A stretch of 15,812 bases of DNA, taken from the NCBI GenBank assembly GCA_026391215.1, contig JAPLDX010000006.1, forward strand, positions 1 through 15,812, given 5' to 3'. A model generated the notes under the pieces. The model ran no database searches and was not told the DNA's origin. It saw only the letters and a list, made by a program, of their open reading frames with translations. Shown in pieces: positions 1 to 15,812 of the stretch. The translations under genes were made by a program, and so were the position numbers. This DNA is from Bacteroidia bacterium. Lineage in GTDB: Bacteria; Bacteroidota; Bacteroidia; Bacteroidales; VadinHA17. Position 1 is the stretch's first letter, and every line of letters starts with the position of its first letter.

Positions 1-1
1 G

Positions 2-2497
2 AGACCAGTCATTGATGGCAAGCTTGATGATGATTGCTGGAAGAACGGAACATGGGCAGGGGATTATCACCAGTGGATACCTGTTGAGGGAGCAAAGCCT
101 ACATGGCCGACGGTATTCAATATCCAGTATGATGATAAAAATCTCTATGTTGCATTCAGGGGTTACGATGGTGAGCCTGAAAAAATTAATCGCATGTCAG
201 GAATTCGTGATGAGCAGGTCGGTGATATGATGGGAGTGACATTTGACAGTTACCATGATTACAGAACAGGATTTGAATTTACAATGACAGCATGGGGACA
301 GAAATCGGATCTTGTTCTGTTCAATCCCATGGACTGGGATTTTAACTGGAATCCTGTGTGGAAAGGAAAAACAGGCCTTGAAGATTCTGCATGGATAGTC
401 GAGATGGAGATCCCTTTAAGCCAGCTTCGTTACAGCAGGGAAGAAGAACAGGTATGGGGAATGCATACCTGGAGGTGGTTATCAAGACTACAGGAGGAAA
501 GCAACTGGGAGATACAATCAAAAACCGGTCCCGGTATGCTGTATAACTTTGGCGAACTTAAAGGTATCAGCGGTTTGAAAAAATCACGCCGGCTTGAAGT
601 GATGCCATTTGTTCTTGGCGATCTTAAGACCATGAATAAAGAAACTGGAAATCCTTTCACGGAAAAGGGGCGGATTTGGGGCGGTAACGCAGGCCTTGAT
701 GCGAAGATAGGTATCTCGAGCAATTTCACTCTTGACCTGACAGTTAATCCTGATTTCGGGCAGGTGGAATCTGATCCGTCAGTAATGAACCTTACTGCAT
801 TTGAAACATTCTACGAAGAAAAGCGTCCATTCTTCCTTGAAGGACTGACAATCTTCAATTATGATTTTGATGATAAGAATCTTTTTTATTCACGCCGTAT
901 CGGACATTCTCCTTCAAGGAGTGTTTATCCGAATGATACTCTGTTTGTAAGTACACCTGACAAAACTACAATCCTGAGTGCGATCAAATTCAGCGGAACT
1001 ACTTCCAAAGGGCTGTCAGTCGGACTGATTCAAAGTCTGACTGCAAATGAATATGCCAGCCTCAGCGACCAGTATGACAACAGGAGCAAAAGCAAGGTTG
1101 AGCCACTTACTAATTATACGGTGGCCAGAATCCAGAAAGGTTATAAGGAAGGTAATACAGTGGTGGGAGGTATGCTGACCTCAACCAACAGGTTTATTAA
1201 AGAGAATAGTCTTGATTTCCTAAGCAATGAGGCTTACACTGGTGGACTGGATATCCTTCACCACTGGAAAGACAAGGAGTTTTACCTGGATGCAAAACTG
1301 CTTGGAAGCTATGTGGGGGGAAGCAAAGAGGCAATAACTGTGCTTCAGGAATCATCAGCACGATATTATCAGCGCCCAGGGGCAGATTACCTCGATTATG
1401 ACACGACCAGAACAAGTCTCAGCGGCTTCGGAGGCAAGCTGAAGATAGGAAAAGGATCAAAAGGATTTTGGAAGTACTCTGCGGGTATATCATGGCTTTC
1501 TCCGGGACTGGAGCTTAATGACCTGGGTTATATGAATACTGCAGATGAAATACTGCAGGAGAATAATGTATCTTACCTGGTCACCAAGCCGGTATCCATT
1601 TTTCAAACCCTGCAAGTTGACCTTGAACAATTCAACTCCTGGAATTTCAATGGTAACTGGCTCGGTTCAGGAGGGCACTTCTCTTTTTCATCAACTTTTC
1701 GGAATAACTGGAGCTTCCAAACAAACCTGATCTTTCACTCTCAGGCTGATGATCCCAGGAAGCTGCGCGGAGGTCCTGATATGATCATGCCATTTAACAT
1801 TATGACAATGGGAAATATAATGACCGATCCCTCAAAAAAGCTGATGTTTCTATTATCATATGGTTATGAAAGTTCCGGTAATAATTCTGCAACCAGTTAT
1901 CAGCTTAATCCTTCTATATCAATTCGTCCTTTTAATTCGTTGAGGATCAGGGTAACAGCTGATTATCAAAAGAATCAAGACAGACTTCAGTATATTACAA
2001 CCACAGATTATCTGTCTGAGAAACGATATATTCTTGGTACAATTGACCAGACAACTCTCGGGCTTACCTTCAGGGCAGACCTTAACCTGACCCCGGAATT
2101 CTCAATTCAGTATTACGGAAGCCCGTTTGTTTCAAGAGGCAGTTATTCGGAGTTTAAGCGCATCACTGATCCTCAGGCAAAAGATTATGAAAGCAGGTTT
2201 ACTCTTTTTGATGAACCCATGTCTGATGGAAATATCTATGCTCTGGATGAGAATGGAGACGACATAGCTGATTATTATATAGACAAGCCCGATTTTAATT
2301 TTCACCAGTACCGTTCTAACCTGGTCGCCAAATGGGAGTACCGGCTTGGATCTTTTATTTATCTTGTATGGTCGAGTGAACGCACAGGAAGAAGCAACCT
2401 GTCGGAAGCCTCTATTGGAGATTCTTACGGACAAATGATGGATGTTTTTCCGAGTAATGTCTTTTTGATTAAATTGAGCTACTGGTTTTCATTATAA
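2..2497 (+). CDS. DUF5916-family protein with N-terminal carbohydrate-binding family 9 (CBM9)-like domain; probable outer-membrane beta-barrel (5'-truncated by the window edge)
   Basis: The frame is open from base 2 (RPVIDGKLDDDCWKNG...YDDKNLYVAF), upstream of the ORF-track ATG at 194. PVIDGxLDD..W and W.VEMEIPLSQLRY are CBM9-like. GLDAK.GISSNFTLDLTVNPDFGQVESDP..NL.AFETFYEEKRPFFLEG and LFYSRRIG are typical of DUF5916. The C-terminal part has many amphipathic beta-strands and ends FLIKLSYWFSL. Confidence 0.88.
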   Translation, partial: RPVIDGKLDDDCWKNGTWAGDYHQWIPVEGAKPTWPTVFNIQYDDKNLYVAFRGYDGEPEKINRMSGIRDEQVGDMMGVTFDSYHDYRTGFEFTMTAWGQKSDLVLFNPMDWDFNWNPVWKGKTGLEDSAWIVEMEIPLSQLRYSREEEQVWGMHTWRWLSRLQEESNWEIQSKTGPGMLYNFGELKGISGLKKSRRLEVMPFVLGDLKTMNKETGNPFTEKGRIWGGNAGLDAKIGISSNFTLDLTVNPDFGQVESDPSVMNLTAFETFYEEKRPFFLEGLTIFNYDFDDKNLFYSRRIGHSPSRSVYPNDTLFVSTPDKTTILSAIKFSGTTSKGLSVGLIQSLTANEYASLSDQYDNRSKSKVEPLTNYTVARIQKGYKEGNTVVGGMLTSTNRFIKENSLDFLSNEAYTGGLDILHHWKDKEFYLDAKLLGSYVGGSKEAITVLQESSARYYQRPGADYLDYDTTRTSLSGFGGKLKIGKGSKGFWKYSAGISWLSPGLELNDLGYMNTADEILQENNVSYLVTKPVSIFQTLQVDLEQFNSWNFNGNWLGSGGHFSFSSTFRNNWSFQTNLIFHSQADDPRKLRGGPDMIMPFNIMTMGNIMTDPSKKLMFLLSYGYESSGNNSATSYQLNPSISIRPFNSLRIRVTADYQKNQDRLQYITTTDYLSEKRYILGTIDQTTLGLTFRADLNLTPEFSIQYYGSPFVSRGSYSEFKRITDPQAKDYESRFTLFDEPMSDGNIYALDENGDDIADYYIDKPDFNFHQYRSNLVAKWEYRLGSFIYLVWSSERTGRSNLSEASIGDSYGQMMDVFPSNVFLIKLSYWFSL

Positions 2498-2513
2498 GTT
2501 GTAATCAATCCGA

Positions 2514-2996
2514 ATGGGAGTTATATTCAGGAATATTGAAAAGAAAGATAATAAGGAGATAGCTGAGCTGATACGTTCAGTTTTCAGGGAATTCGGTGTT
2601 GATCGTCCCGGTACCGTATACTTTGATCCAACCACCGATGATCTTTTTTCATTATTCCGGACTCCGGGTTCAATGTACTGGATAGCTGAAGATGATGGTA
2701 AAATTATCGGGGGGTGCGGGATCTATCCAACACAAAACCTGCCTGAAGGTTGCGCAGAAGTAGTCAAGCTCTATCTGAATGCTTCTTACCGTAAGCTTGG
2801 TATCGGGAGGCAGTTGCTTGAACTGAGCATAGAATCGGCTAAAAAGATCGGATACAGACAGCTGTATCTCGAATCTTTACCCGAGCTGGGTAAAGCAATA
2901 AGCCTTTACCAGAAACAGGGATTCAGATTTTTAAATCACAAAATGGGCGATGAAGGGCATTTTGGATGCACCATCTGGATGATGAAGGATCTATAG
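2514..2996 (+). CDS. GNAT family N-acetyltransferase (YjgM-like)
   Basis: 160 aa. Contains IIGGCGIYP, EVVKLYL, the acetyl-CoA motif A YRKLGIGRQLL, LYLES..L..AISLY.K.GF, and the C-terminal GHFGC.IWM.K.L typical of YjgM-like GNATs. Confidence 0.92.
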   Translation: MGVIFRNIEKKDNKEIAELIRSVFREFGVDRPGTVYFDPTTDDLFSLFRTPGSMYWIAEDDGKIIGGCGIYPTQNLPEGCAEVVKLYLNASYRKLGIGRQLLELSIESAKKIGYRQLYLESLPELGKAISLYQKQGFRFLNHKMGDEGHFGCTIWMMKDL

Positions 2997-3005
2997 ATTT
3001 TAATT

Positions 3006-4580
3006 ATGAATACTACAGAAAACAACAATTCAGCAACATTCCACGGATCTGATTGTCCGTGTTGCGGAGGCAATCATGTCAGGAATGAAATATCGAGAAG
3101 AAAATTTGTAAGCGTCACCGGGACAGGGGCAATTGGAACTATTGCCCTTTCAGGTCTCTCATGGGCTGCTCTAATTGATGTTCAGGATGCAGAGAGAAAA
3201 GTCCCTCAACGCAAACCACTGGTCGTTAAACCGATTCTGACATATGAAGTGCCTACACGCAGAGCCCAGACAAGCTGGAGAAGCTGGGGCGGTATTCAGA
3301 CTGAAAAAGATGCCGCTGAGGAAATTGCACGAATAGCGGAGGAGCTTAAATCACTCAATTCACAGGCTGATTTTCCTGTAATCTTTTTGCCGGTTACCAG
3401 TGTTCGAAATGAAGAGAGCCTGAGCAATATAAAAGACATGGAATCAGCAGACTTGCTGATTATTTACGCTGCAGGAGGTGGACAGGGAATGTTTGATATT
3501 CTCAATAAAACCGGAAAGAACATTATCTTTTTCTGCCGTCATCTGTCAGGTCCGGTATATCTGTGGTATGAAATAATAAGTCCACGTTATCTAAGACAGC
3601 ATACCGACAAATTAGCAGTTAAAGGGATAGATGAAAATGATGTTGTCATCGATAACCAGGATGAACTGCTCTGGCGCTTAAGAGCATTATGCGGATTGAA
3701 GAATACCATAAACTCCAGGATACTGACCATCGGCGGTGCAGGTGCCTGGTCCCAGCCGCTGGATGTTGTAATGAAAACTGTAAATGAGAAATACAAACTT
3801 GATATTCGGGACGTATCTTATGAAGAATTAGGCACGTTGATAACTGAAGCGAGGAAGGATAATTCAGTTTTATCACGCGCCAAAAGAAATGCTGATGACT
3901 ACCTCCGTGATTCAGGAATTAAGCTGGAAACGGACCGGAAATATGTCGAAAATTGTTTTGTCCTGGAAGATATCCTTGCACGGCTGATGGAGAAATATGA
4001 ATGCAGGGCAATTACAATAAATAACTGCATGGGTACCATAATGCCGCTATCAGAAACAACTGCATGTCTGACACTGAGCCTGCTGAATGATGCAGGCTAT
4101 CTGGCTTTCTGCGAATCTGATTTTGTTGTGGTACCCATGGGTATGCTGCTTGCCAATATATCGGGCAAGCCTGCATTCTTAAATGATCCGACATATCCAC
4201 ACGATAAAGTAATTACCCTGGCTCACTGCACAGCTCCCAGGAAAATGGACGGCAAGAAAGCTGAACCGGCAAGGATACTTACCCATTTTGAATCAGACTA
4301 TGGTGCTGCTCCCAAGGTTGAGATGCTTGTGGGACAAACAGTTACAAATGTAATGCCCGATTTTATATTTGATCGTAATATTGGACTGATTGGCAAAATA
4401 ATTTCGAATCCCATGCTTGATATATGCCGCTCGCAGATTGATATCAGCTATGAATGCGACAGTAAAGCAGTCGCTGAAAAAATGCCGGGCTTTCACTGGA
4501 TAACCGTTTATGGTGATTATATAAAGGAAACCGGTTATGCTCTTAAGAAGATAGGGATTGAATTTGAAAACCTGGTTTGA
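3006..4580 (+). CDS. L-fucose/L-arabinose isomerase-like (FucI/AraA superfamily) protein with twin-arginine signal peptide
   Basis: SRRKFV (R31-R32) is followed by a hydrophobic stretch ending SWAA. The C-terminal half has AITINNCMG, CLTLSLLNDAG, AFCESDF, LAHCTAP, CRSQ and GFHW..VYGDY, resembling fucose-isomerase-like proteins. The substrate cannot be inferred. Confidence 0.72.
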   Translation: MNTTENNNSATFHGSDCPCCGGNHVRNEISRRKFVSVTGTGAIGTIALSGLSWAALIDVQDAERKVPQRKPLVVKPILTYEVPTRRAQTSWRSWGGIQTEKDAAEEIARIAEELKSLNSQADFPVIFLPVTSVRNEESLSNIKDMESADLLIIYAAGGGQGMFDILNKTGKNIIFFCRHLSGPVYLWYEIISPRYLRQHTDKLAVKGIDENDVVIDNQDELLWRLRALCGLKNTINSRILTIGGAGAWSQPLDVVMKTVNEKYKLDIRDVSYEELGTLITEARKDNSVLSRAKRNADDYLRDSGIKLETDRKYVENCFVLEDILARLMEKYECRAITINNCMGTIMPLSETTACLTLSLLNDAGYLAFCESDFVVVPMGMLLANISGKPAFLNDPTYPHDKVITLAHCTAPRKMDGKKAEPARILTHFESDYGAAPKVEMLVGQTVTNVMPDFIFDRNIGLIGKIISNPMLDICRSQIDISYECDSKAVAEKMPGFHWITVYGDYIKETGYALKKIGIEFENLV

Positions 4581-4594
4581 TCCTTCCTGATTTT

Positions 4595-5446
4595 CTAATT
4601 AATAAGGTACTGACGGTACTTATGATAGTAATAATATATCCTGCGGTATTGCAGCGGCGTTAATATACATTTGCATTTATCAGGAGAATCTGACATGATA
4701 TTGGCAACCGAGGGTATAAAGTATTTTCCATTATCGTCCCTCATTGTGCCAATATACTTACAGCTGTCAATAACCTCGTTGAAAAGACCGGGATCAGCAT
4801 AAGTATCACAAATAAAATCACCAGCTGACGAACAATTCTTCTCACTTTCCAGTTCTCTTCCGCCAGATGTTTCATGGGTTGAAAGCAATCCCATGTAATG
4901 ACCAAGCATGGTTGTAAGCGAATTTCCTCTTGCATAGCTTTTGACCAGATAGATGAAGTTACTGTCTGCCTCATTTGGGAAATATGTAAATCCATAACTT
5001 TTACCGGATCCTATTTTTATTGAATCTGCAAGGAAAATATTTATCCGGTTATTGATTGAATATTTTGTCAGAAGTTCTTTCTTGAGATTGTTATAAGTAA
5101 TAAAAGAGTAATTGTAATCATTGATATACTCAATCGTATCTATAAAAAATTGTATCCCGGCATTTTTAAAATAGCCATTTGCAAGATCCACACTGTATTT
5201 AATATCATTTTGATCCACTCCTGCTGATCCTTTTTTATTCATTATAATATGAATCATTAATGGAATATTTACAGCAGGATCCAGGGAGCTGATATCGAAA
5301 GGGAAAGAGTTTTCATCAGCATAGTTCACAACTAAAGTATCCAGAAATGATTGAGTTGCCGTGACTCCGTCAGGCAGCTGTGCTGATGCGAAGCAGTTGA
5401 TTAAAAGAAGCAATACTATCAGATAACCTTTTCCGGTATTTTTCAT
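4595..5446 (-). CDS. Secreted peptidase M43 (pappalysin/ulilysin-like) homologue with degenerate zinc motif; predicted inactive
   Basis: Signal peptide ending ASA|Q. Scaffold motifs IPLMIHII, LANGYF.NAGIQF, INIF, GFTYFP, C...GDFICDT.ADP, Met-turn NIMS and TPLQY.RI all match M43. The zinc motif reads TMLGHYMGLLSTH instead of HExGHxxGLxHTH. ATGA overlap with the upstream gene. Confidence 0.8.
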   Translation of the reverse strand: MKNTGKGYLIVLLLLINCFASAQLPDGVTATQSFLDTLVVNYADENSFPFDISSLDPAVNIPLMIHIIMNKKGSAGVDQNDIKYSVDLANGYFKNAGIQFFIDTIEYINDYNYSFITYNNLKKELLTKYSINNRINIFLADSIKIGSGKSYGFTYFPNEADSNFIYLVKSYARGNSLTTMLGHYMGLLSTHETSGGRELESEKNCSSAGDFICDTYADPGLFNEVIDSCKYIGTMRDDNGKYFIPSVANIMSDSPDKCKCILTPLQYRRIYYYYHKYRQYLIN

Positions 5447-7440
5447 AATTCATCCTTATTGAAATTAGATATCTCTCCTACGATCCTGAATTCTGTCCTT
5501 CTGTTCAGCTGTCTTCCTTCAGGATTATCGGATCCATCTTTATTGGTATTAGGTGCAACAGGATTACGCAGGCCATACCCTTTAGCGACCAGGCGTTCGG
5601 GTGAAATTCCCTGCGAGATCAGGTGACTGACAACACTTTCGGACCGTTTCTGCGAGAGTTCAATATTATACTCATCAGTTCCTTTATTGTCGGTATGTGA
5701 ACCGATCTCGACGATCCCATTCGGGAAAATATCAAACAAAGGCATTACCATTGAATCAATGATCTGCCTTGCAGTATCGCTGAGCTTATACTTGTCAAAA
5801 TCATAATAGATGTTTAACTGAATGGTGATCTTCGGCAAATAACTTATGAATGTAGTACCTATTTCAATTGTGTCGGAGCAAAAGATATCTACAGAATTCA
5901 CAGGCACCTTTTTCTCGAAATAGCCATAATTTTTTACCAGTACCTTATAATATTTATCTGTCTCAAGACCAAAATTATAGTTGCCGTTAATATCTGTGGT
6001 AGTTCTGGCTATCAGGATCTCATCATTCTCCTTTTCATCGGTCAGGTACAGCTCCACAGGAACATCAGGGATAGTGGAATTATTTTCCGGGTATTCGAGT
6101 CCAAGATGATATTTTTCATTCAGGTTGTCATAGAAGTCATAATTCACGGAATTCCGAACGGTCCCCCGGGAGTAGATCTTTACACATTCATTGACAAAAA
6201 ATGAAAATATGTCGTCACAGCAGGTGCCACTGTCTAAGGTGAAGGTGCCTGTCCGGTTGGAAGAAAAGAATCCTTCCCTGTTGCTCTTCATAATTGAGAA
6301 ATAATAATCATCACAGGATGAATTTATTGGTTTGGGCATTGGCACCGCGTCGGTCCATTTAGCTGCAGAACCTGTTGCTTTATAGATATCATATCCGCCG
6401 AGTCCGTTTTTCCTGCCCGATGAACTAAAATAGAGTGTCTGGGTTGAGATATCGTAAAAAGGAGAACACTCATCACCAAATGAGTTGACTTTATTTGAAA
6501 GAGCAAGCGGATCTTTATAGGTATCATTCTTCAGGTCATATTCGGAATACCATATATCCGTGCCTCCCTTTCCTCCGGGCCTGTCTGAAACAAAATAGAG
6601 GATATTTTTCCCTGTCCTCAGGTTTTTGCCCAATGCTGGCTGGGTAGCTGTATAATCTTCACGATTAATAGGATATGGAAGTTTTTGTGGGGTTTGCCAT
6701 TGATCACCTTCTAAACGACTGATATAGATCTCACTTATATATTCATTTTGCCAGTTCTTCCGAGATCGTGTGAAAAACAAACTCCTGCCGTCTTCCGATA
6801 TTACGGCATTGCCAGTGTTGAACCGGGGATCATTTATATTACCTTCAAGCAGTCCCGAAGAGTTCCAGATTCCGTCAATCTTTTCCGCTTTGAATATCTG
6901 CCGTACAGGATTAATTTGTGTGTTATTATCACTATAGGCTGCACCATATATAATTGTTTTATCATCAACAGGAGAAGGTGAAAAATCAATATCCGGATGA
7001 TTCAGCCCTTTTCCCGGATGGGTGACAATTATATTCCCGTTTGTATCAGCACTGTTTTTTGCCCAGTCTGAATTTGCTGAATAAACTGTCGACAGTCTTT
7101 TGTAACTGAATTTATCTTTCTTCCCGTAGTACTTTCTAAACTTCGTAAATGACTCTTTAGCGATATCATACTTTTTAAGGTTCATGCATACAATTCCTTT
7201 GCGATAATATGCCAGCGGGTATTTCGAAGGACTGGCATTAATTACAGAATCATAATACTGATAAGCCATTTCATAATCTCTTGTTTCAAAGTAAAGGTTT
7301 GCCAGCCTGTATAATAATTTAATATCCTTATCTGGTGCCAGTGCAAACAAGTTCCCTGAATTAAGAATAAACATGAACAGCAAAATGAAGCTCAAACTGA
7401 GAAAACGTGAAATTCCATATTTCATATTTCTGTCATCCAT
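5443..7440 (-). CDS. PorE-like OmpA-family protein (TPR + PD40/WD40-like propeller + carboxypeptidase-regulatory-like domain + OmpA C-terminal peptidoglycan-binding domain)
   Basis: N-terminal signal peptide (alternative start at M6, 7425). TPR-like LANLYFETRDYEMAYQYY and AYYRKGIVCMNLKKYDIAKESF. PD40 repeats LFFTRSR, LYFVSDRPGGKGGTDIW, LYFSSSGR..GLGGYDIY and GFFSSNR. OmpA domain IYYDFDK...EIGSHTDNKG.DEYN.ELSQKRSESV...AKGYG...GRQLNRRTEF. It lies directly downstream of a PorP/SprF gene. Confidence 0.92.
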   Translation of the reverse strand: MDDRNMKYGISRFLSLSFILLFMFILNSGNLFALAPDKDIKLLYRLANLYFETRDYEMAYQYYDSVINASPSKYPLAYYRKGIVCMNLKKYDIAKESFTKFRKYYGKKDKFSYKRLSTVYSANSDWAKNSADTNGNIIVTHPGKGLNHPDIDFSPSPVDDKTIIYGAAYSDNNTQINPVRQIFKAEKIDGIWNSSGLLEGNINDPRFNTGNAVISEDGRSLFFTRSRKNWQNEYISEIYISRLEGDQWQTPQKLPYPINREDYTATQPALGKNLRTGKNILYFVSDRPGGKGGTDIWYSEYDLKNDTYKDPLALSNKVNSFGDECSPFYDISTQTLYFSSSGRKNGLGGYDIYKATGSAAKWTDAVPMPKPINSSCDDYYFSIMKSNREGFFSSNRTGTFTLDSGTCCDDIFSFFVNECVKIYSRGTVRNSVNYDFYDNLNEKYHLGLEYPENNSTIPDVPVELYLTDEKENDEILIARTTTDINGNYNFGLETDKYYKVLVKNYGYFEKKVPVNSVDIFCSDTIEIGTTFISYLPKITIQLNIYYDFDKYKLSDTARQIIDSMVMPLFDIFPNGIVEIGSHTDNKGTDEYNIELSQKRSESVVSHLISQGISPERLVAKGYGLRNPVAPNTNKDGSDNPEGRQLNRRTEFRIVGEISNFNKDEL

Positions 7441-7455
7441 TGAACCTGATCATTA

Positions 7456-8523
7456 TTAATTTATTATGTAGCATGGTTGACTCGTTTTATCCCGGGAATG
7501 TGTTTTACCAGTATATATCAATGATATTTCAAATGCACCGTTAAAATTTGTTGCCTTGTGCAATGGTGAAATATTTAAATCGTAAATGAGTCCCAGGTTG
7601 AACTGAAGGAACTCTGCTCCTCCACCCAGGATAAAAGCATCAATGTCACGCCAGGGGTTTAGACGGAACATGGTTACAGCATATAATTTTTTAACCGGGA
7701 TATTTGATCCGGACATCGAAAAACCTCCCGTACTGCCAAAGAGGAATTCATTTGCTCCCGGGGTGTAGCTGTAAACCAGGCATGGTTTCAGATCAATCCT
7801 GACGTTGACAGGGATCATTACCTCACTATTAAAATTCAGTTTCATTGGCAACCGTGAGCCTGTTGAAGAGGTTAAAAATTTCTGCAAAGGCATATTCAGA
7901 TGACTTACTGAAATGCCTGCGGAGGGCATAATATTACGGATCATTGTTCGCCAGAATATTCCGGCATTAAGGTCGAAGTATCTCAGCCTGTCGCCCATCC
8001 CGTTTTCAAGACTGGGAAGGGTTTCATCGAAAACCTGGCTTGACTGGTTGAACTGGGAGCTGAAGGTTATGCCTGCAAGGTTATAGGTTTTAAAGACAAA
8101 ACCCGGCTGCAATCCTATCGTAAACTGCTGGTTTCTAAAAACTCTTGAATAGCTTGCAGAGACCATAAATTCATTTGCTGATAAGTTAAGTGACGATGAC
8201 TGATCATGCAATATAAATCCGCCAAGGCCGAATGAATGACCTGAAATAGTAAGCTTTTTATCGATTGAGGTACTGAAAGTTTCAAAAGGTACACCGATAT
8301 TTGACCATTGGTTCCTGTATATGTTTGCAATTCTTATATCCTCACCTGACATTCCTGTATTTGCAGGATTTGTCAACAGGGGAGCTGCGTAAAACTGTGA
8401 AAAATGTATATCCTGCGCCTGAAGATGTATCCCCTGGATAAACAAAAGAATAACAGCCGGAATGATTAAGCATGGGCGCTTAAGATCAGGGTTTATTGCA
8501 TTATATTTTAAACGGGATATCAT
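7456..8523 (-). CDS. PorP/SprF family type IX secretion system outer-membrane protein
   Basis: Signal peptide ending LQA|Q. Canonical motifs QDIHFSQFYAAPLLTNPANTG, YRNQW, FDLNAGI, GISVSHLN.P and YDLNIS.L.....GAFEISLIY. ATGA overlap with the upstream cargo gene. Confidence 0.94.
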   Translation of the reverse strand: MISRLKYNAINPDLKRPCLIIPAVILLFIQGIHLQAQDIHFSQFYAAPLLTNPANTGMSGEDIRIANIYRNQWSNIGVPFETFSTSIDKKLTISGHSFGLGGFILHDQSSSLNLSANEFMVSASYSRVFRNQQFTIGLQPGFVFKTYNLAGITFSSQFNQSSQVFDETLPSLENGMGDRLRYFDLNAGIFWRTMIRNIMPSAGISVSHLNMPLQKFLTSSTGSRLPMKLNFNSEVMIPVNVRIDLKPCLVYSYTPGANEFLFGSTGGFSMSGSNIPVKKLYAVTMFRLNPWRDIDAFILGGGAEFLQFNLGLIYDLNISPLHKATNFNGAFEISLIYTGKTHSRDKTSQPCYIIN

Positions 8524-8792
8524 CTTAATAGTAAAAATTCTCCGCTCTTAATGAATTTGTATCCATGAAGGGTTTCGGCTTCTACAGAATATTTATATGT
8601 ATCAATGTTTTGCGGATGACCATTGATATTTCCGTCCCATCCCTTGTTAATATCATTCGTCGTGAAAACAATCTCTCCCCAGCGGTTGAATATTTTCAGA
8701 TCAAAATTTATGATATTCTTTACCTCGAACATGAATATATCGTTGTTTGAATCACCATTTGGAGTGAACGCCGAAGGAGCTTCCAGGTAGAA
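8520..8792 (-). other. T9SS type B sorting domain (gliding motility-associated C-terminal domain) of the large PKD protein
   Basis: Contains PSAFTPNGD.NND.F, NRWG and GWDG, and ends LLLR. Confidence 0.92.
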
Positions 8793-11700
8793 ATCCCGGA
8801 TCACTTCAATATTAAATGTTTCAAAAATATCAAAACAACCATTTTCCGCTTCTACGATATAGGTTGTCGTTTCGGTAGGTGAAACCCATGGATTGCTGCA
8901 ATGGATGCATGAAATGTTTTCCCCGGGTGACCATGAATACTTCACATTGTTTTCGGTTGTTCCGATTAACAACCGGATCTTTTGGCCGATAAAAATTGAT
9001 GTATCATTCAGAGGAGACCTGTTTAAATCGAAAGGCTGATTCACCATTATCGTTTTTTCCCGGGTTGATGAACACCCGGAAGAATTTATCACCCTTGCCG
9101 TATATGTAGTCGTAACTTGCGGCTTTGCGGTAGTTTCAAAAGCTGCAGGATCATTCAGCCCGGTGGTTGGCGTCCATCTTATCTTATCATCGGCATACTT
9201 TACAACCCTGAGAATGGCGGAATTCTTGCCTGCACATATAACTGAATCACCAGCTATCGTGAAAGAAGGCAGAGCATTGATTGTAAATTTCTTTATCAGC
9301 GTATCGGTACAACCGCCTGTTTCCTTTGCAACAAGCCTGACATAATGATCGCCGGTACTGCTGAATTGTACGTTACTAAGGTCGTACCCGGTTGAAACCT
9401 GCACATCGTCAACAGCCCAATTCCATGATTTTGAATTCAATGAGCGATTCAGAAGATTCACCTTTATTCCATAGCAATAACTATAGACACTGTCACTGCT
9501 TTTAAAATCAGCCCTGACTTTTGAAACTAACAATGTGTCAAGTACCCGGATTGCATCGCAGGTTTCGTTTATCAGCTGTATTGACGGAACAATTTTACCC
9601 CTTGAAGTGTACCTGTGTGTAACAGGATTAGCGGTTGAAGTGTTCCCGTCCCCAAACAGCCATTTCCATTGACTGACATTGTCAGGGGAATCCATTTTGA
9701 AAGAGACAGCTTCATTGTAGCATATATCGCGGGGAGAAAAACTTATCAAAGCATCTGGTCCTGAAATTGAAATATTTCTGGATTTGCTGGCCTCACAACC
9801 GTTTAATGTTCTGACAGTGAGCTGAGCTTTGTAATTTCCGGGTTTTGTAAATGTATAATTGACATTATCTGAGTTTCTGCCAATCAAAACCTGTGAACCA
9901 AAAATCCAGAGAAAATCGACAGCCGGACTATTGATCGAATTATCATGGATAAAGTTTATGGTTTTAGGGTAACAATTAAAAATTGTGTCGCTGGCTGTGA
10001 AATTTGCACTTGCCTTTTCAACGCTGACATAATTTACTTTTGTGACTGTATCACGACAGCCACCTTTTGTCGCTGCCATTGATACACTGAATTGTCCCGG
10101 CGTGGTATAGACATGAGTGCCGGTTGTGACAGAGCTAATACCGTCTCCAAAATCCCACCAGAGGTTTTTCAAACTGGTATCAGCCGGGGTAAATGTAACT
10201 TCCTCTCCAAGGCAGATTGCATTGTTATCAGCCTGAAAATCACTGTTTATTCCAACCAGTCCGGTGGGTATCGCATAACTGCTGGAACATGCCCAGGCAT
10301 CATATACTGTCAAAGCCGGATAATATGTTATTTGTTCGTCGCTTGAAAAGAGGTGTGTTACATTTTTACTGTTTGTACTGTCGGACGTGTTATCACCAAA
10401 ATCCCATATCCACCTGACAATGGTCGTATCCGTTGATGTATTTTCGAAATTAACGCTCAGTTCTGGCAGGCAGCCTGATGTCGTGTCTGATGTGAAGCTT
10501 CCTGTGGGTTTGAAAATATGAACCACCTTTTGGGAAGTATCCACACAGCCATTGTCTGCTGTAACGACTAATTTTATTGTGTCTGTTCCCCTTGCAGTAT
10601 AAATATGATCATATTTGGTCAAAAAAGTCCTCCTGGGCGGAGAGTCGTCCCCAAAATACCACAGGAAGCCTTCATTAAAACAAGTATTAATGAAATCCCG
10701 GGATGATGAAGCATCTAAAATCACGGAATCGCCGGCACAAAATATAGTGTCATTCAAAGTAAAATCAGACATCACCTGGCGGACCTTTATGATCTTTGTT
10801 CTCTCCAGGGTACACCCTGATAATAAATCAAATACTGTTAGATTCACCAGGTAATCGCCGCTTTTTGGAAAGCTATAATCCAGGGAATCAACATCATTGA
10901 CATAACTTGTATCAATGTTCCATATCAATGATGTTGAGGGAGTTATAATAGATTTAAAATGATAATTCAGTGAACTGTCGCAGGTGAAAGATTCAATAAA
11001 ATTGCCGGCTGGTCCCTTTATTTTTAAAATACTTCTTTTGATAGTGTCGGAGATACAGCCATTATAGTCCACCTGAAGATTTATATCCTTAGATCCTGTA
11101 CTGTCGGAATAAATTTTTATAATCGTATCGGGTACGGATATAGAATATAAATCAAAAAGATTGTCAGCGCTGAAACGCCACATGCTTACCAATGAATTAA
11201 TACCGGCATTTCCGATAAGATGGATAGCCCCCCCGTTGCACACCTCGTCAGGAGTTACAGTAAAATCAGGCATCAGTTTATCTCCTGCTATAATTTTAAC
11301 GACCCTTGATGTATCATAACAGCTCCCGCTTTTTATTACTTCAGAAGCATAGTATTCTCCTGGTTTTGTAATAGTGTAATTCACAGGTGTTTTATTCAGG
11401 GAAGTGATCAGTTCGCTGCCTATGCTGTAAGTATATGAATCTATGTTGAAGGCCGATCTGCTGCTGTCGGATAAGATTATCTGCAATGGAACGCAACCTG
11501 ATACCTTATCAGGCATGAACCGGGCAACTGGTTTTGCAATATTGATCATCCTGGTCACTGAGTCGAAGCAAATCCCGGCATTTGATGCAACCAGTTTTAC
11601 CGGAAGTTTAATATTATACAATTCATGGCTGTAAAGCTGCTCATTGCTCTCTTGTGGAAGATCTTTATCTGTTATTGTATATGAAGCGGTCCTTTCATTT

Positions 11701-12926
11701 GATATTAGCGTGTCGGAAAAGTACCATGCAACTCTATCTGCGTTTTGCGATGAGTTTACAAAGTTTAGTTGCTGAGGCACTGAGCAAAATAAAGTATCAG
11801 CGAGAGAGAAAGCTGCTTTAATATAGCTTTTGATAAACGAAAGAGTAATGCTGTCAGTGCAGTATGAATTCTTGCCATAAACCAGCTTGATAACAATTTT
11901 CCCTGAACCTGTGACCTGATATTTCATTGAATTTCTCCCATGAAAGGTTGTGGTCTTATCGTTATCGGTAATGCTCCAGGTATAATCGGGCAGGTTCGGG
12001 TCAGAGTAGACAAATCTGAACATTCCGTCACAAATAAAAGATTTATCGAAGACTCTGTTTTTGCCATCATAAACAGTCAGAGTCCCTTTTTTATACCCGA
12101 CAGTGATATATGAATTCTTTATTAATGAATCCGAACATCCGGACTGATCAGTTGCTGTCAGCTTTACACTATAGTTCCCAATTGAATCGTATATTGATGA
12201 ATTACTTATTTCCGTTGAAGTATTCCCGTTGCCAAAGTCCCATTTATAGGTCATTGCGGATGATCCTTCTGACAGATTGGCAAATGATATATTCAGGGGC
12301 GGAACACAGGCAAAAGTATCCGATGCTGCAAAATCCGGTCTGGGCTTATCTGCAACAGTAATTATCTTATGAGATTCAAGCATGCTATAGCAGCCATTTT
12401 TGTCAGTAACTTTCAGAATCACATCATATTGCCCTGTCCTGTTATAGGAATATTGGACGGATGAGCCCTCGGTATGATCGCCATTTCTGAAATCCCACAA
12501 AAAATTTGTTATCTCTGAATCACCGGGACTGGAATTGCTCATAAAATTTATCAGCATAGGAGGGCACCCGGTTACAGGATCGGCGGTAAAACTTGCCACA
12601 GGCCCCCTGGCAATTATTAACACAGCGCTTGTGCTGTCACTGTTGATTCCATCGGAGACCTTGAGGGTGACGGTATATTGTCCGGCTTTTGTATAAAGCT
12701 GTTCTTTCACAGAATTATCGGTTGCTGAAACAACAGCACCCAGACCAAAGTTCCATGTATAGGTAATACCAGGTCCATGGGTTGAGTTATTGGTGAATCT
12801 TACTATCGTCGGGGCACAGCTGCTGATTTTGGAGCAGGTGAATTTTGCTGTAATGCCAAAGGCCGGTATAACAAGAATATGTGAAAGGACTAGAAGGAAG
12901 CAATATTTTGACCTGCATATTTTCAT
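8520..12926 (-). CDS. T9SS cargo with about 14 PKD and 2 Ig-like repeats and a gliding-motility-associated (type B) C-terminal domain
   Basis: The start is placed at ATG 12926 (MKICRSKYCFLLVLSHILVIPAFG signal peptide) rather than 12977. Repeats of A.F.....C.P..V.F.N.S....W.WDFGDG...H.Y..PG.Y.V.L......GC.D. CTD reads PSAFTPNGDSNNDIF...IFNRWGEIVF...GWDG...DTY.Y...G.F.LLR. Confidence 0.93.
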   Translation of the reverse strand: MKICRSKYCFLLVLSHILVIPAFGITAKFTCSKISSCAPTIVRFTNNSTHGPGITYTWNFGLGAVVSATDNSVKEQLYTKAGQYTVTLKVSDGINSDSTSAVLIIARGPVASFTADPVTGCPPMLINFMSNSSPGDSEITNFLWDFRNGDHTEGSSVQYSYNRTGQYDVILKVTDKNGCYSMLESHKIITVADKPRPDFAASDTFACVPPLNISFANLSEGSSAMTYKWDFGNGNTSTEISNSSIYDSIGNYSVKLTATDQSGCSDSLIKNSYITVGYKKGTLTVYDGKNRVFDKSFICDGMFRFVYSDPNLPDYTWSITDNDKTTTFHGRNSMKYQVTGSGKIVIKLVYGKNSYCTDSITLSFIKSYIKAAFSLADTLFCSVPQQLNFVNSSQNADRVAWYFSDTLISNERTASYTITDKDLPQESNEQLYSHELYNIKLPVKLVASNAGICFDSVTRMINIAKPVARFMPDKVSGCVPLQIILSDSSRSAFNIDSYTYSIGSELITSLNKTPVNYTITKPGEYYASEVIKSGSCYDTSRVVKIIAGDKLMPDFTVTPDEVCNGGAIHLIGNAGINSLVSMWRFSADNLFDLYSISVPDTIIKIYSDSTGSKDINLQVDYNGCISDTIKRSILKIKGPAGNFIESFTCDSSLNYHFKSIITPSTSLIWNIDTSYVNDVDSLDYSFPKSGDYLVNLTVFDLLSGCTLERTKIIKVRQVMSDFTLNDTIFCAGDSVILDASSSRDFINTCFNEGFLWYFGDDSPPRRTFLTKYDHIYTARGTDTIKLVVTADNGCVDTSQKVVHIFKPTGSFTSDTTSGCLPELSVNFENTSTDTTIVRWIWDFGDNTSDSTNSKNVTHLFSSDEQITYYPALTVYDAWACSSSYAIPTGLVGINSDFQADNNAICLGEEVTFTPADTSLKNLWWDFGDGISSVTTGTHVYTTPGQFSVSMAATKGGCRDTVTKVNYVSVEKASANFTASDTIFNCYPKTINFIHDNSINSPAVDFLWIFGSQVLIGRNSDNVNYTFTKPGNYKAQLTVRTLNGCEASKSRNISISGPDALISFSPRDICYNEAVSFKMDSPDNVSQWKWLFGDGNTSTANPVTHRYTSRGKIVPSIQLINETCDAIRVLDTLLVSKVRADFKSSDSVYSYCYGIKVNLLNRSLNSKSWNWAVDDVQVSTGYDLSNVQFSSTGDHYVRLVAKETGGCTDTLIKKFTINALPSFTIAGDSVICAGKNSAILRVVKYADDKIRWTPTTGLNDPAAFETTAKPQVTTTYTARVINSSGCSSTREKTIMVNQPFDLNRSPLNDTSIFIGQKIRLLIGTTENNVKYSWSPGENISCIHCSNPWVSPTETTTYIVEAENGCFDIFETFNIEVIRDFYLEAPSAFTPNGDSNNDIFMFEVKNIINFDLKIFNRWGEIVFTTNDINKGWDGNINGHPQNIDTYKYSVEAETLHGYKFIKSGEFLLLR
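8795..12855 (-). repeat. Array of about 16 tandem PKD/Ig-like domains of roughly 80-95 aa (protein-level repeat, diverged at DNA level)
   Basis: Recurring WDFG(D/N)G-like and GC.D motifs in the translation. Boundaries are approximate and counted by eye. Confidence 0.8.
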
Positions 12927-12946
12927 ATAAGGCAGCGGTATGAAAA

Positions 12947-13915
12947 TTAATGATACCAGTATTCCTTGTCTCCGCATTTAACAGTCGGAGAGGAAGACCT
13001 TGCAGGGATCCGGTATTCAAGCATGATCTCATGTGTCTGGTTCAGGGAATACGCTGAAAACAAACTTTGATCGTAAGAATATCCAATCCTTATATAAGAG
13101 GTAAACATCATTCCGAAATTAAAAGTCATCTGACGCGAAGAACGGCAGGTCAATCCAAAATCGAGTATTTCCTGAGGCCCTCTCAGGAGTGTCCCTTCCA
13201 TTAGTCTCGGCTTATGCTTAATCCGTACAGATAAATTTCCTTCCAGTATAGTGTGTTTATTGTTATTAATTATCTGGGCTCCTAAAGTATAGGTAAAAAG
13301 CTGAGGATTATCGTTTTTGTATATAGCATAGGCATAACGATGATTTGTATTCATAATCAGACTGTCTGATCTGCCCATCGAAAATAAATGAGTTGATGAA
13401 ATCCCATAAATGAAGTGAATGTTTTGAAACTCAATGCCGGCATTAACATCCGGGTGTACAGTTTTCATATTATAATAAAACAGAGAAGGATCCTGAGCAT
13501 CTTCTGCCTCGAACAGAGAACCATTGACTGAACGTGAAAATATCCCAGCCGAAAGACCCATGGATAAAGTCCACGCATCCTTTTTTGCGAGACGGAAAGC
13601 ATAGGTCACCATTGGATTGTATGTCCGGGTGATTCCGATTTTATCAATTACCAGCGACAATCCTAATGCTGAACGCATGCTTTGGAAATATTGGGATGCC
13701 TGTATATTTAAAACCTCCGGCGCTCCTTTGATGCCCATCCACTGACGACGAACGTTGGTATAAAGAAAAAGATAATCAGTGCGTGTTATAAAAGCCGGAT
13801 TGTAATAAGCCCTGTTATTCCAGTGTGTAGCCATGCTGAAATCTGACTGGGCCATTAATCCTGTCCCGGACATAAGAGTGATTGCTAAAAGAATATATGC
13901 AGATATATGCCTCAT
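12947..13915 (-). CDS. PorP/SprF family type IX secretion system outer-membrane protein (divergent paralogue)
   Basis: Start at ATG 13915 (GTG 13918 also possible). Signal peptide ending LMA|Q. Motifs YYNPAF, RRQWMGIKGAP, SALGLSL..DKIG, YAFRL, LSMGLSAG, DVNAGI and IGYSYD...THEIMLEYR. Confidence 0.9.
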   Translation of the reverse strand: MRHISAYILLAITLMSGTGLMAQSDFSMATHWNNRAYYNPAFITRTDYLFLYTNVRRQWMGIKGAPEVLNIQASQYFQSMRSALGLSLVIDKIGITRTYNPMVTYAFRLAKKDAWTLSMGLSAGIFSRSVNGSLFEAEDAQDPSLFYYNMKTVHPDVNAGIEFQNIHFIYGISSTHLFSMGRSDSLIMNTNHRYAYAIYKNDNPQLFTYTLGAQIINNNKHTILEGNLSVRIKHKPRLMEGTLLRGPQEILDFGLTCRSSRQMTFNFGMMFTSYIRIGYSYDQSLFSAYSLNQTHEIMLEYRIPARSSSPTVKCGDKEYWYH

Positions 13916-13925
13916 CACAATTAGT

Positions 13926-14162
13926 TCATCTTATAAGGGTTACGTAACCTTTTCTGTTACGGATTATCTCTTTGCTGTCTTTATAATAAATCATATAGAA
14001 ATAAGTATCGGGACTGGCAGATCGTCCATTATTCCTTCCGTCCCAGCCATCGTTGCCTTTATGTATTCTCATCCCATTCCTGTCAACAATTTCCAGTTCA
14101 AAACCCGGCATAAAAATATCATTTGTTCCATCTCCGTCAGGCGTAAATACGTTAGGGATAAA
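13926..14162 (-). other. T9SS type B sorting domain (compact variant)
   Basis: Contains IPNVFTPDGDG.ND.F, GWDG and TYFY, and ends KGYVTLIR. Confidence 0.9.
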
Positions 14163-15812
14163 AGGAATCACATCAACGTATTTGAATGAGCTGTCTGTGC
14201 AGTTTTGTTTGTCTGTTGCGGTAAGTGTAACCAGGTAATACAATGGAGTGTATGAAACATTGTATCCATGCTGGAAAATCTCGCCAGATCCGTATGAGCC
14301 ATCTCCCATAGCCCAGGCGTATGTCACACCTGTTTGAGCAGGGATGTTGCATCTTACTATATTGTTTTTTCTGTCAATTACATCAGGAGAGACTGAGAAT
14401 TCAGTTGAAGGCAGCTGATAAACAGTAACCCTGAAAGTTGCTGACTTTTTACAGCCGCGTGTATTGGTACCTGTGACAATATATGTTCCGCCATCCGACA
14501 CGGAAATTGTATCATTTGTGTTTCCCTTATCCCATAAGTAACTGATAGCCCCGGATGCTGAAAGAGTGACACTTCCGCTTCCGCATATCGACGTATCTCC
14601 CTGCATGAGGAATGTCCAGTCCGGCTCCTCAATTATGGGTTTATAAATTGTATCGGAAACACATCCCGTGCTGGAGCGTCCCAATAACCAGTATTCTCCT
14701 CCTGGAGCGCTTATTTCTATTGAATCAGCTTTTGAACCATTATTCCATGTATAATCAACTGCACCATACGCTTTTATCCATGTGCTCAGACCCGGGCAAT
14801 AGGTGGAATCACCGGTTATGCCAACCAGGGGAGGTGAGAAAGATTCAATATCTTTTGTCAGGGTATCACTGCATGCAGAAGGCAGATTATTCAGGATCAG
14901 GGTAACAGTATGCATACCGGAGGTGCTGAAAGTACACGGAGGGTCTTTATTATCAGATGTATTCCCATCCTCAAAATACCAGTTGTATGATAGAGAGCCA
15001 TGATTAGTTGACGAAAGATCTATCATCTGTACTGTATTGGAATGACAATCAATCATAAAAGAACTGAAATCAGCATGAGGGATATATTTGACTATTGAAG
15101 TATGAAGCGATACAACGCATCCTGTCGCTGATGTCATGGTACAGGAATATGATAATTTCTGATCAGGTACGTTCACCTGGAGGATCTGTAACGAATCCAG
15201 CAAAGTTCCGTTGATATCGGTCCATCTGTACTTTTCAAAACCTTCCGGTGCAATTAAGCTGGCCGCAGTATCAGATGCACAATACTTCACCGAAATATAC
15301 AGGGGATGACATTCTGCCACAAAATAGGCATATCCATAATGGTATTGCTCTGCACAATCGGCCGACATAAACTCAACCGTGACAGTCTGTCCGATGTATT
15401 TCAGGAGATTTACTCCCACCGTCGTCCAGTCTCTCCATTCAACCGGGACTGATGAACCGGACGGAATGTATGTTTTAAACCCCTTTACATATTTATTGGT
15501 TGCATACACATCATAGTTCGAGCAGTCTGGTAAAATATTACCCTGACTGTCATAAAGCGTAAGGCGAAACCTCGGTTCATCTGTTGGAGCATGTGCGGCG
15601 ATATATTGCAATACCAGGGCAAATTTAAGGATCAGCAGAGCATTTGATGAATCTATTTTCATAGTATATCTCAGGCTCTGTTCCCAGCATCTTGGCGCCC
15701 TATCTGCACTTGTGATCTCATCTCCAAGACGTGCGGAATACAGGTAACCTGATGGGATTTTTTTCAGGGCATATCCCGTATTTGCATCATATTCAGTAGT
15801 GTCTGACATAAT
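13926..15812 (-). CDS. T9SS cargo: uncharacterised N-terminal beta-rich head domain, about 5 Ig/PKD repeats and a type B C-terminal domain (5'-truncated by the window edge)
   Basis: The frame is open to the window end (ATT at 15810-15812) and no signal peptide is visible, so the true start is upstream. PKD/Ig repeats include WYFEDGNTS, YTWNNG, YLWDKG and WAMGDG. CTD reads FIPNVFTPDGDGTNDIF...DRNG...GWDG...DTYFY...KGYVTLIR. Confidence 0.9.
   Translation of the reverse strand: MMSDTTEYDANTGYALKKIPSGYLYSARLGDEITSADRAPRCWEQSLRYTMKIDSSNALLILKFALVLQYIAAHAPTDEPRFRLTLYDSQGNILPDCSNYDVYATNKYVKGFKTYIPSGSSVPVEWRDWTTVGVNLLKYIGQTVTVEFMSADCAEQYHYGYAYFVAECHPLYISVKYCASDTAASLIAPEGFEKYRWTDINGTLLDSLQILQVNVPDQKLSYSCTMTSATGCVVSLHTSIVKYIPHADFSSFMIDCHSNTVQMIDLSSTNHGSLSYNWYFEDGNTSDNKDPPCTFSTSGMHTVTLILNNLPSACSDTLTKDIESFSPPLVGITGDSTYCPGLSTWIKAYGAVDYTWNNGSKADSIEISAPGGEYWLLGRSSTGCVSDTIYKPIIEEPDWTFLMQGDTSICGSGSVTLSASGAISYLWDKGNTNDTISVSDGGTYIVTGTNTRGCKKSATFRVTVYQLPSTEFSVSPDVIDRKNNIVRCNIPAQTGVTYAWAMGDGSYGSGEIFQHGYNVSYTPLYYLVTLTATDKQNCTDSSFKYVDVIPFIPNVFTPDGDGTNDIFMPGFELEIVDRNGMRIHKGNDGWDGRNNGRSASPDTYFYMIYYKDSKEIIRNRKGYVTLIR

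Follow-up and report, generated by a model that had tools for sequence, protein, structure and literature searches.

How type B cargo of the T9SS (type IX secretion system) is handled between Sec export and PorP/PorE anchoring is poorly understood. The described modules, PG1035-PorP-PorE in P. gingivalis and Fjoh_3952-3951-3950 in F. johnsoniae, follow an operon logic in which a cargo goes with its cognate PorP/SprF shuttle and a PorE-like anchor, and term searches of the main texts that describe them find no metalloprotease-like gene in type B modules (PMC9143113, PMC12618676). The same logic is seen in a 15,812-nucleotide stretch of DNA from a Bacteroidia bacterium of the VadinHA17 lineage (contig JAPLDX010000006.1 of assembly GCA_026391215.1, positions 1 to 15,812 of the forward strand; hereafter the window), whose operon differs from the known modules in a conserved fourth gene, specific to one cargo family. 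The product of this gene, P0001, is by profile and model comparison a homologue of the M43 (pappalysin/ulilysin/cytophagalysin-type) metzincins, and its sequence makes it most likely unable to cleave peptides. The known T9SS module thus has a putative M43 pseudo-peptidase as its fourth gene here, and the intact relatives found beside operons of the same kind suggest that it is a helper not yet described for this secretion module.

P0001 shares its fold, including an N-terminal prosegment, with proulilysin (8CDB) and promirolysin (6R7U/6R7V; Z 20.9-21.6), and has in common with M43 zymogens the Met-turn methionine, conserved cysteines and a C-terminal helix. In both, a Gln comes after the signal peptide, with the switch position three to four residues beyond it; the construct of cytophagalysin CPL1, for example, starts at Q20 and has its switch at C24 (PMC11674741). 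The Tyr switch of M43 peptidases stands two residues after the Met-turn Met (PMC11674741). The two differ in the catalytic apparatus, where P0001 reads T-M-x-x-H-x-x-G-x-x-S and not HExxHxxGxxH, and its family carries Asp, Asn or Glu at the Tyr switch and Asp at the Cys switch. Unlike CPL1 and mirolysin, P0001 is also without downstream domains or a C-terminal sorting domain (CTD).

Intact short stand-alone M43 proteins (P0144, P0151, P0160; L050, L051, L064, L065) belong to the length class and clade of P0001 and share its neighbourhood of PorP, PorE-like and multi-PKD type B cargo genes. Unlike P0001, they have HExxHxxGxxH, the Tyr and, in those aligned at the N-terminus, the Cys switch; no study of them turned up in the literature searched. 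A parallel from further away is offered by the ADAM22/23/11 pseudo-peptidases (M12B metzincins), which act by protein binding and, like P0001, have a degenerate zinc motif with the Met-turn retained; in the ADAM22 motif QSLAHNIGIISD only the second His is kept and Ser stands at the third (table in PMC11266112). These are eukaryotic membrane proteins of another metzincin family, and the likeness is one of analogy, not descent. A term search of the 2024 pseudo-metallopeptidase review (PMC11266112) finds no mention of M43 or pappalysin, and M43 would join the metallopeptidase families known to contain pseudo-peptidases. Nothing closer was found in searches of the literature on pseudoproteases, metzincins, M43 and T9SS, and for the papers searched the statement of the initial annotation of this DNA, made from the sequence alone, that no such component is described for PorE/PorP systems still holds.

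That annotation had read P0001 as an M43 metzincin. Searched alone, P0001 matches PF05572 at E 0.0029 (18 bits, under the gathering score of 23) and finds no family in NCBIfam, and a profile of its close family finds no M43 among solved structures (best E 0.47). An exhaustive search for relatives returned 2959 representatives at E<=1e-3. The 150 best representatives plus the query formed a wider sequence set (151 rows, 4 of them too short for the motif), in which 108/151 rows read H-E-H-H at the first His, the Glu, the second His and the third His of the zinc motif (HEHH hereafter), with NxMSY and GDxxCDTPADP. A 95-sequence profile that includes intact relatives, to which P0001 itself matches directly at ~1e-30 to 1e-37, finds ulilysin (1.4e-16) and pappalysin-2 (3.4e-14), as well as pappalysin-1 and mirolysin, and 51/95 members of its alignment match PF05572 at E<=0.001.

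The structural comparison bears out the M43 fold. An AlphaFold2 (AF2) model of P0001 made with the 95-sequence alignment has a predicted local distance difference test score (pLDDT) of 94.1 and a predicted template modelling score (pTM) of 0.91, and replaced an earlier run with a shallow 27-sequence alignment (pLDDT 60.6). Its top Foldseek matches are ulilysin (E 2.9e-10), PAPP-A and mirolysin. VIA-align gives proulilysin at Z 21.6 (root mean square deviation 3.2, 243 aligned), promirolysin at Z 20.9, PAPP-A at Z ~21 and mature ulilysin at Z 20.1; the best 18 rows are all M43 (ulilysin, mirolysin, PAPP-A, PAPP-A2; Z 19.1-21.6, 205-243 aligned), against Z <=13.1 for non-M43 metzincins.

Translation of the P0001 gene gives an uninterrupted 283-aa frame, and codon arithmetic from its start at 5446 puts the zinc motif where the initial annotation had placed it (Table 1). 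The first zinc His is Thr, the catalytic Glu is Met, the second His is kept and the third is Ser (T179-M180-x-x-H183-x-x-G186-x-x-S189), in place of the HExxHxxGxxH of active M43 peptidases. On the coding strand it takes two or more base changes to turn any of the codons ACC (T179), ATG (M180) and TCA (S189) into one for His (CAY) or Glu (GAR), confirming the multi-base substitutions noted at the outset. The Met-turn NIMSD without Tyr and the scaffold motifs GFTYFP, GDFICDT and TPLQYRR were likewise found as described. Across 95 homologues no variation is seen at C205, C213, C229, C258, G209, D210, T215, N249, M251 or Q266, and hardly any at D214; the four cysteines are candidates for the M43 disulfides, and D210, D214 and T215 for its calcium-site segment.

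The degenerate site is a fixed trait of the close family. A search with P0001 gave 213 homologues, of which 120 are listed at 61-96% identity; these and P0001 make up the close-homologue set (n=121; 118 aligned at the N-terminus). The four key positions read TMHS in 108, TLHS in 7, AMHS in 2, and IMHS, TMHT, NMHS and TMHA in one each. His179, Glu180 and Tyr253 each occur in 0/121, and no HExxH is present in any close homologue, as the proposal of a conserved dead motif predicted. The remaining histidine, H183, is His in 121/121 and invariant in a 27-row alignment (A1), M251 of the Met-turn is present in 121/121, and residues 191-192 are HE in 119/121 and HD in 2/121. Position 253 holds N (67), D (41), E (11), A (1) or G (1). 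Positions 179/180 vary among T/A/I/N and M/L in the close homologues and among T/C/R/S/A and M/Q/L in the wider clade.

Selection on the gene was estimated from pairwise nonsynonymous to synonymous substitution ratios (dN/dS; NG86, pairs with dS<2). The median is 0.136 for the M43-like gene (19/153 pairs), similar to the neighbouring PorE-like gene (0.119, 16/105 pairs) and PorP_A (0.149, 17/105 pairs), and among 12 listed pairs the M43-like values range from 0.07 to 0.24. The dN/dS below 1 anticipated in the initial annotation was thus found, and the frame is intact in 17/18 related loci. P0001 therefore combines loss of the catalytic residues with retained purifying selection, as befits a pseudoenzyme.

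The N-terminus has the marks of an exported zymogen. Cleavage by signal peptidase I (SPI) after the predicted signal peptide would expose Gln23, which is invariant in A1 and is Q in 117/118 aligned close homologues. Under the Bacteroidetes Q-rule for the residue after SPI cleavage (PMC5837995, PMC10653852), P0001 probably carries an N-terminal pyroglutamate. Neither a type A nor a type B sorting domain of T9SS cargo is present: Pfam and NCBIfam give no CTD family, and the C-terminus lies only 2 residues past the last M43-profile match. The signal peptide and the missing CTD agree with the initial annotation, and on this reading P0001 is probably periplasmic. A lipoprotein identity was set aside as unlikely because Cys18 is not conserved in A1.

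The annotation had also seen no Cys-switch propeptide, which is half right. In the VIA-align superpositions the prosegments of both proulilysin and promirolysin fall on model residues 24-53. The alignment with proulilysin (its residues 18-323) covers model residues 21-283 and that with promirolysin (residues 21-321) covers 24-283; for mature ulilysin and mirolysin the match does not begin before model residue 54. A prosegment is thus present, and it is the switch cysteine that is missing. Model residue 24 corresponds to promirolysin residue 21, which puts Asp26 on Cys23, the cysteine switch of promirolysin (PMC11674741, PMC8259862); the residue is Asp in 118/118 aligned close homologues. In the 95-row alignment the switch column is Cys in 35/38 HEHH proteins and in 8/9 three-His Glu-less proteins; in the 48 proteins that have lost a His ligand it reads D in 35, N in 8, C in 3 and S in 2. 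This raw co-loss table is descriptive only.

With the prosegment retained and Asp26 invariant, the model suggests that the former cleft is probably filled in cis. This weakens the earlier idea of an open peptide-binding cleft at work as chaperone, adaptor or decoy, and the high conservation of the retained prosegment means that the functional surface may lie elsewhere than the old cleft. What stands of the proposed selected pseudoenzyme is the loss of two zinc ligands, Glu and Tyr under purifying selection; its open cleft has lost ground.

P0001 belongs to a clade of short stand-alone M43 proteins (~270-298 aa) that includes intact HExxH, Glu-less HQxxH and fully degenerate members. A tree built from 95 proteins separates 64 short ones (262-298 aa) from longer HEHH forms with a Shimodaira-Hasegawa-like approximate likelihood ratio test (SH-aLRT) value of 100. 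Among the short proteins, 43 form a clade (SH-aLRT 99) that is without an HEHH member and has three short HEHH proteins as its sister group. A second tree has a 59-row short clade (SH-aLRT 88), with the short genes L071, L076 and L083 among the long forms and L063 and L089 basal; the other nine complete short genes from metagenome contigs, and L128, fall inside the short clade. Intermediate states occur in the relatives, from HQxxH...H with the Cys switch kept and Tyr changed to Phe, to TQ..H..S, and then to TL/TM..H..S; others have none of the three His (SLSF, ALSR, QLNN). Among 401 sampled genomes of the phylum only one further short stand-alone copy was found (in G087), and 0/7 same-order genomes have a match at E<=1e-20.

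The Glu-to-Gln proteins with HQxxHxxGxxH (P0134, P0140, P0143, P0147, P0157, P0182, P0198; L048, L057) keep the three His and mostly the Cys switch (8/9 three-His rows), with the Tyr switch mostly Phe. Judged by sequence, they resemble forms that bind zinc and stay latent for good, intermediate between intact and dead proteins. Among the long forms, a 475-aa protein, P0217, has a degenerate R-Q-H-P site with Tyr changed to Asp, apparently a case in which the catalytic site was lost separately from the short clade.

Linkage to the type B module is conserved well beyond the window. The PorE-like gene lies directly upstream of the M43-like gene in 18/18 related genome loci, and PorP_A and the large cargo are also present in 16/18, the other two contigs ending inside the PorE-like gene. 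Deeper loci were taken from the best 80 of 466 confirmed relatives on metagenome contigs, plus the G087 locus, and their PorE, PorP and type B CTD neighbours were called with hidden Markov models (HMMs) built for this analysis. Ten of 14 complete short genes have PorP, a PorE-like gene or a type B cargo nearby. Outside the close TMHS family, the short-clade genes with usable context, those of 9/9 metagenome loci and of the genome locus L128, adjoin one of these, the sites of the ten reading HEHH in 6, HQHH in 2, HMHH in 1 and HVHH in 1; partial short genes in L075 and L086 are likewise linked. The synteny with porE/porP-like genes that the initial annotation asked for thus extends to 18/18 close and 10/10 deeper short-clade loci. 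By comparison, a PorP lies within 8 kb of just one of 44 long M43 genes; a PorE-like gene is near none of the 44, and one of them carries its own type B CTD.

The arrangement of the linked loci varies (PorE-M43; M43 overlapping PorP, then PorE; PorP-M43-cargo; M43 divergent from cargo-PorP-PorE). All 6 large neighbours tested pass TIGR04131 (39.8-58.3 bits, cut-off 35), and 5 are collinear with the 1485-aa cargo of the window over ~1300-1520 residues at 27-29% identity. Short-clade M43 genes therefore show the conserved linkage across lineages expected of a module component. Because intact HExxH relatives adjoin the same kind of module, the module link is, by this comparison of sites and neighbours, older than the loss of catalysis. 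One further link was discounted: in L076 a type B protein lies 2.5 kb away, but the short M43 gene there groups with the long forms. Directly downstream of the M43-like gene, two related loci (L015:10832-13898, L017:2030-3754) encode further, smaller type B CTD proteins on the other strand.

Eight genes of the PorP family score over the cut-off in the genome that carries the window (3.39 Mb, 98.9% complete). In this genome PF05572 matches only the P0001 gene, a search with P0001 finds one copy, and neither search finds an intact M43 gene. The 8 PorP genes and PorE-like paralogues mean that the genome has many type B modules and only one with an M43-like gene, so P0001 is not a general component of PorE/PorP systems. 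Several more TPR/WD40/OmpA (PorE-like) frames of ~480-960 aa were seen on contigs C18, C120, C38, C12 and C122.

We consider it likely that P0001 is a selected, non-catalytic "frozen zymogen" M43 protein that serves one type B cargo module. Its ancestors would be short stand-alone M43 proteins that already served a single kind of T9SS type B module, in which a multi-PKD cargo of ~1300-2000 aa goes with a PorP/SprF shuttle and with a peptidoglycan anchor of PorE-like type. Exported by Sec and probably released by SPI cleavage, it keeps the whole architecture of a zymogen (prosegment, catalytic-domain fold, Met-turn Met, four invariant Cys and the GDxxCDT..ADP segment); gone are two of the three zinc His, the Glu that would be the general base, and both the Tyr and the Cys switch. 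It would persist as a non-catalytic accessory of the module, translationally coupled to the PorE-like gene, and would act by binding, with the PorE-like protein, PorP or the cargo as candidate partners.

Several points weigh against this account. Support for the short clade dropped from SH-aLRT 100 to 88 between the two trees, both of them quick searches, and the co-loss of zinc ligands with the Cys switch and of Glu with Tyr is not significant when relatedness is allowed for (3-4 independent pairs). Neighbours on metagenome contigs were called with the purpose-built HMMs, the curated model having been applied to six large cargos only. The location of P0001 is read from its signal peptide and the absence of a CTD match, and a co-fold of the PorE-like protein (35-665) with the M43-like protein (23-283), using separate alignments, scored 0.00, which speaks neither for nor against binding. 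With H183, H191 and E192/D retained and Asp at position 26 throughout, there may be a residual or altered metal site. Finally, the M43-like copy in one related metagenome-assembled genome (MAG), L018, is frameshifted. There (L018:10001-10800) two overlapping frames stand in place of the one gene, perhaps through an assembly error, perhaps because this copy is a real pseudogene; its operon is otherwise intact.

The retained residues also speak for a rival view, in which P0001 remains an enzyme or binds metal through a non-canonical site (e.g. Asp26, His183, His191, Glu192), with altered chemistry or specificity: H183 is invariant, H191-E192/D is kept in 121/121 close homologues and D26 in 118/118. 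We regard this as unlikely. The general base and the Tyr switch are both lost, and positions 179/180 are not ligand-like since the residues there drift. H191/E192, which the initial annotation offered as alternative ligands, were rejected as replacements because they are already conserved in intact relatives. Among HEHH relatives, in which position 253 is Y in 36/38, position 191 is H in 35/38 and position 192 is E in 18/38 and G in 13/38, so the "HTHE" continuation is ancestral and not compensatory. It is harder still to see P0001 as a decaying relic without function, a reading we find scarcely tenable: it would account for the missing catalytic residues and the frameshifted MAG copy, and is contradicted by the conservation in A1 and by dN/dS (0.07-0.24 among the listed pairs, median 0.136), by a frame intact in 17/18 loci and by 213 homologues at 60-96% identity with dozens of invariant positions.

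Two other explanations accept selection on P0001 and place its job elsewhere. It could be a periplasmic protein unrelated to the T9SS module, its adjacency reflecting shared regulation or chance; its partners in the module are indeed candidates, and the gene order differs between lineages and is therefore not that of one fixed operon. The same rearrangements count against this idea, since the linkage survives them in several gene orders, with 10/10 short-clade loci linked outside the close family and 18/18 within it, against 1/44 long M43 genes, and the neighbouring cargo is one homologous family; we think it quite improbable. Pseudo-peptidases often regulate active cousins (PMC11266112), and with its prosegment retained P0001 might act in trans on an active M43 protease, as decoy or inhibitor. 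This seems very unlikely in a 98.9%-complete genome that yields no other M43 match to PF05572 or to P0001.

Beyond the dead binding protein that we favour for P0001 lies a broader idea, which we offer tentatively as possible rather than probable: the short M43 proteins may be an unrecognised, dedicated fourth component of widespread type B modules, originally a periplasmic processing or quality-control protease and more than once converted to a dead binding subunit, the genome of the window being one such case. If true, the short M43 protease would be a possible type B counterpart of the protease-family proteins in the type A pathway. What is new here is a conserved extra gene that tracks one cargo family and occurs in intact, Glu-less and degenerate states. 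The series from intact to dead proteins is natural material on the job of the protein and on when catalysis became dispensable.

The minus-strand operon of the window is tightly packed, with six genes that end in the M43-like gene and are separated by <=15 bases or overlap (Table 1); Pfam and NCBIfam annotation of these genes upholds the placing of P0001 at the end of a T9SS type B operon. The overlap between the PorE-like gene and the M43-like gene is 4 bases. Against NCBIfam the PorE-like protein matches CHU_0125_OmpA (1.6e-77) and T9SS_PorE (1.8e-64), both under their curated cut-offs.

Table 1. Coordinates of the operon genes and of the features of P0001 in the window.
Feature	Position	Strand	Details and basis
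Type B cargo 1	13926-15812	(-)	at least 628 aa, 5' end beyond window; PKD_4 + CHU_C; TIGR04131 38.2 bits
PorP_B, PorP/SprF family, 323 aa	12947-13918	(-)	PF11751 1.1e-36; TIGR03519 149.9 bits
Multi-PKD cargo, 1485 aa, T9SS type B C-terminal sorting domain	8520-12977	(-)	PKD_4 5.4e-78, CHU_C 6.2e-14, TIGR04131 53.7 bits (cut-off 35)
PorP_A, PorP/SprF family, 355 aa	7456-8523	(-)	PF11751 7.5e-36; TIGR03519 151 bits (cut-off 90.55)
PorE-like protein, 665 aa, TPR + PD40/WD40-like + OmpA_C	5443-7440	(-)	Pfam OmpA 2.4e-16, TPR, PD40
M43-like putative pseudo-peptidase gene (P0001), 283 aa, last of operon	4595-5446	(-)	open reading frame (ORF), translation, homologues, AF2 model
Predicted signal peptide, residues 1-22 (MKNTGKGYLIVLLLLINCFASA), ends ASA	5381-5446	(-)	read from translation
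Retained prosegment-like segment, residues 23-53	5288-5380	(-)	superposition on M43 zymogens; Asp26 codon 5369-5371
Degenerate zinc motif T179-M-L-G-H183-Y-M-G-L-L-S189-T-H-E192 (TMLGHYMGLLSTHE)	4871-4912	(-)	translation, alignments
Met-turn N249-I-M251-S-D253	4688-4702	(-)	Met kept; Tyr-switch position is Asp

Public DNA runs that contain the stretch are labelled freshwater sediment, and no RNA run is among the listed public runs containing it. The M43-like gene is convergent with an ORF at 3006-4580(+), the stop codons lying 14 bases apart. This 524-aa ORF is without a Pfam family, its N-terminus resembles a twin-arginine signal (SRRKFVSV...) after a CPCC motif, and it is kept beside the operon in L001 (85% identity). 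The region is further flanked by the gene of a DUF5916 protein whose N-terminus is weakly CBM9-like (2-2497(+)) and by that of a GNAT acetyltransferase (2514-2996(+)), both of them syntenic in L001.

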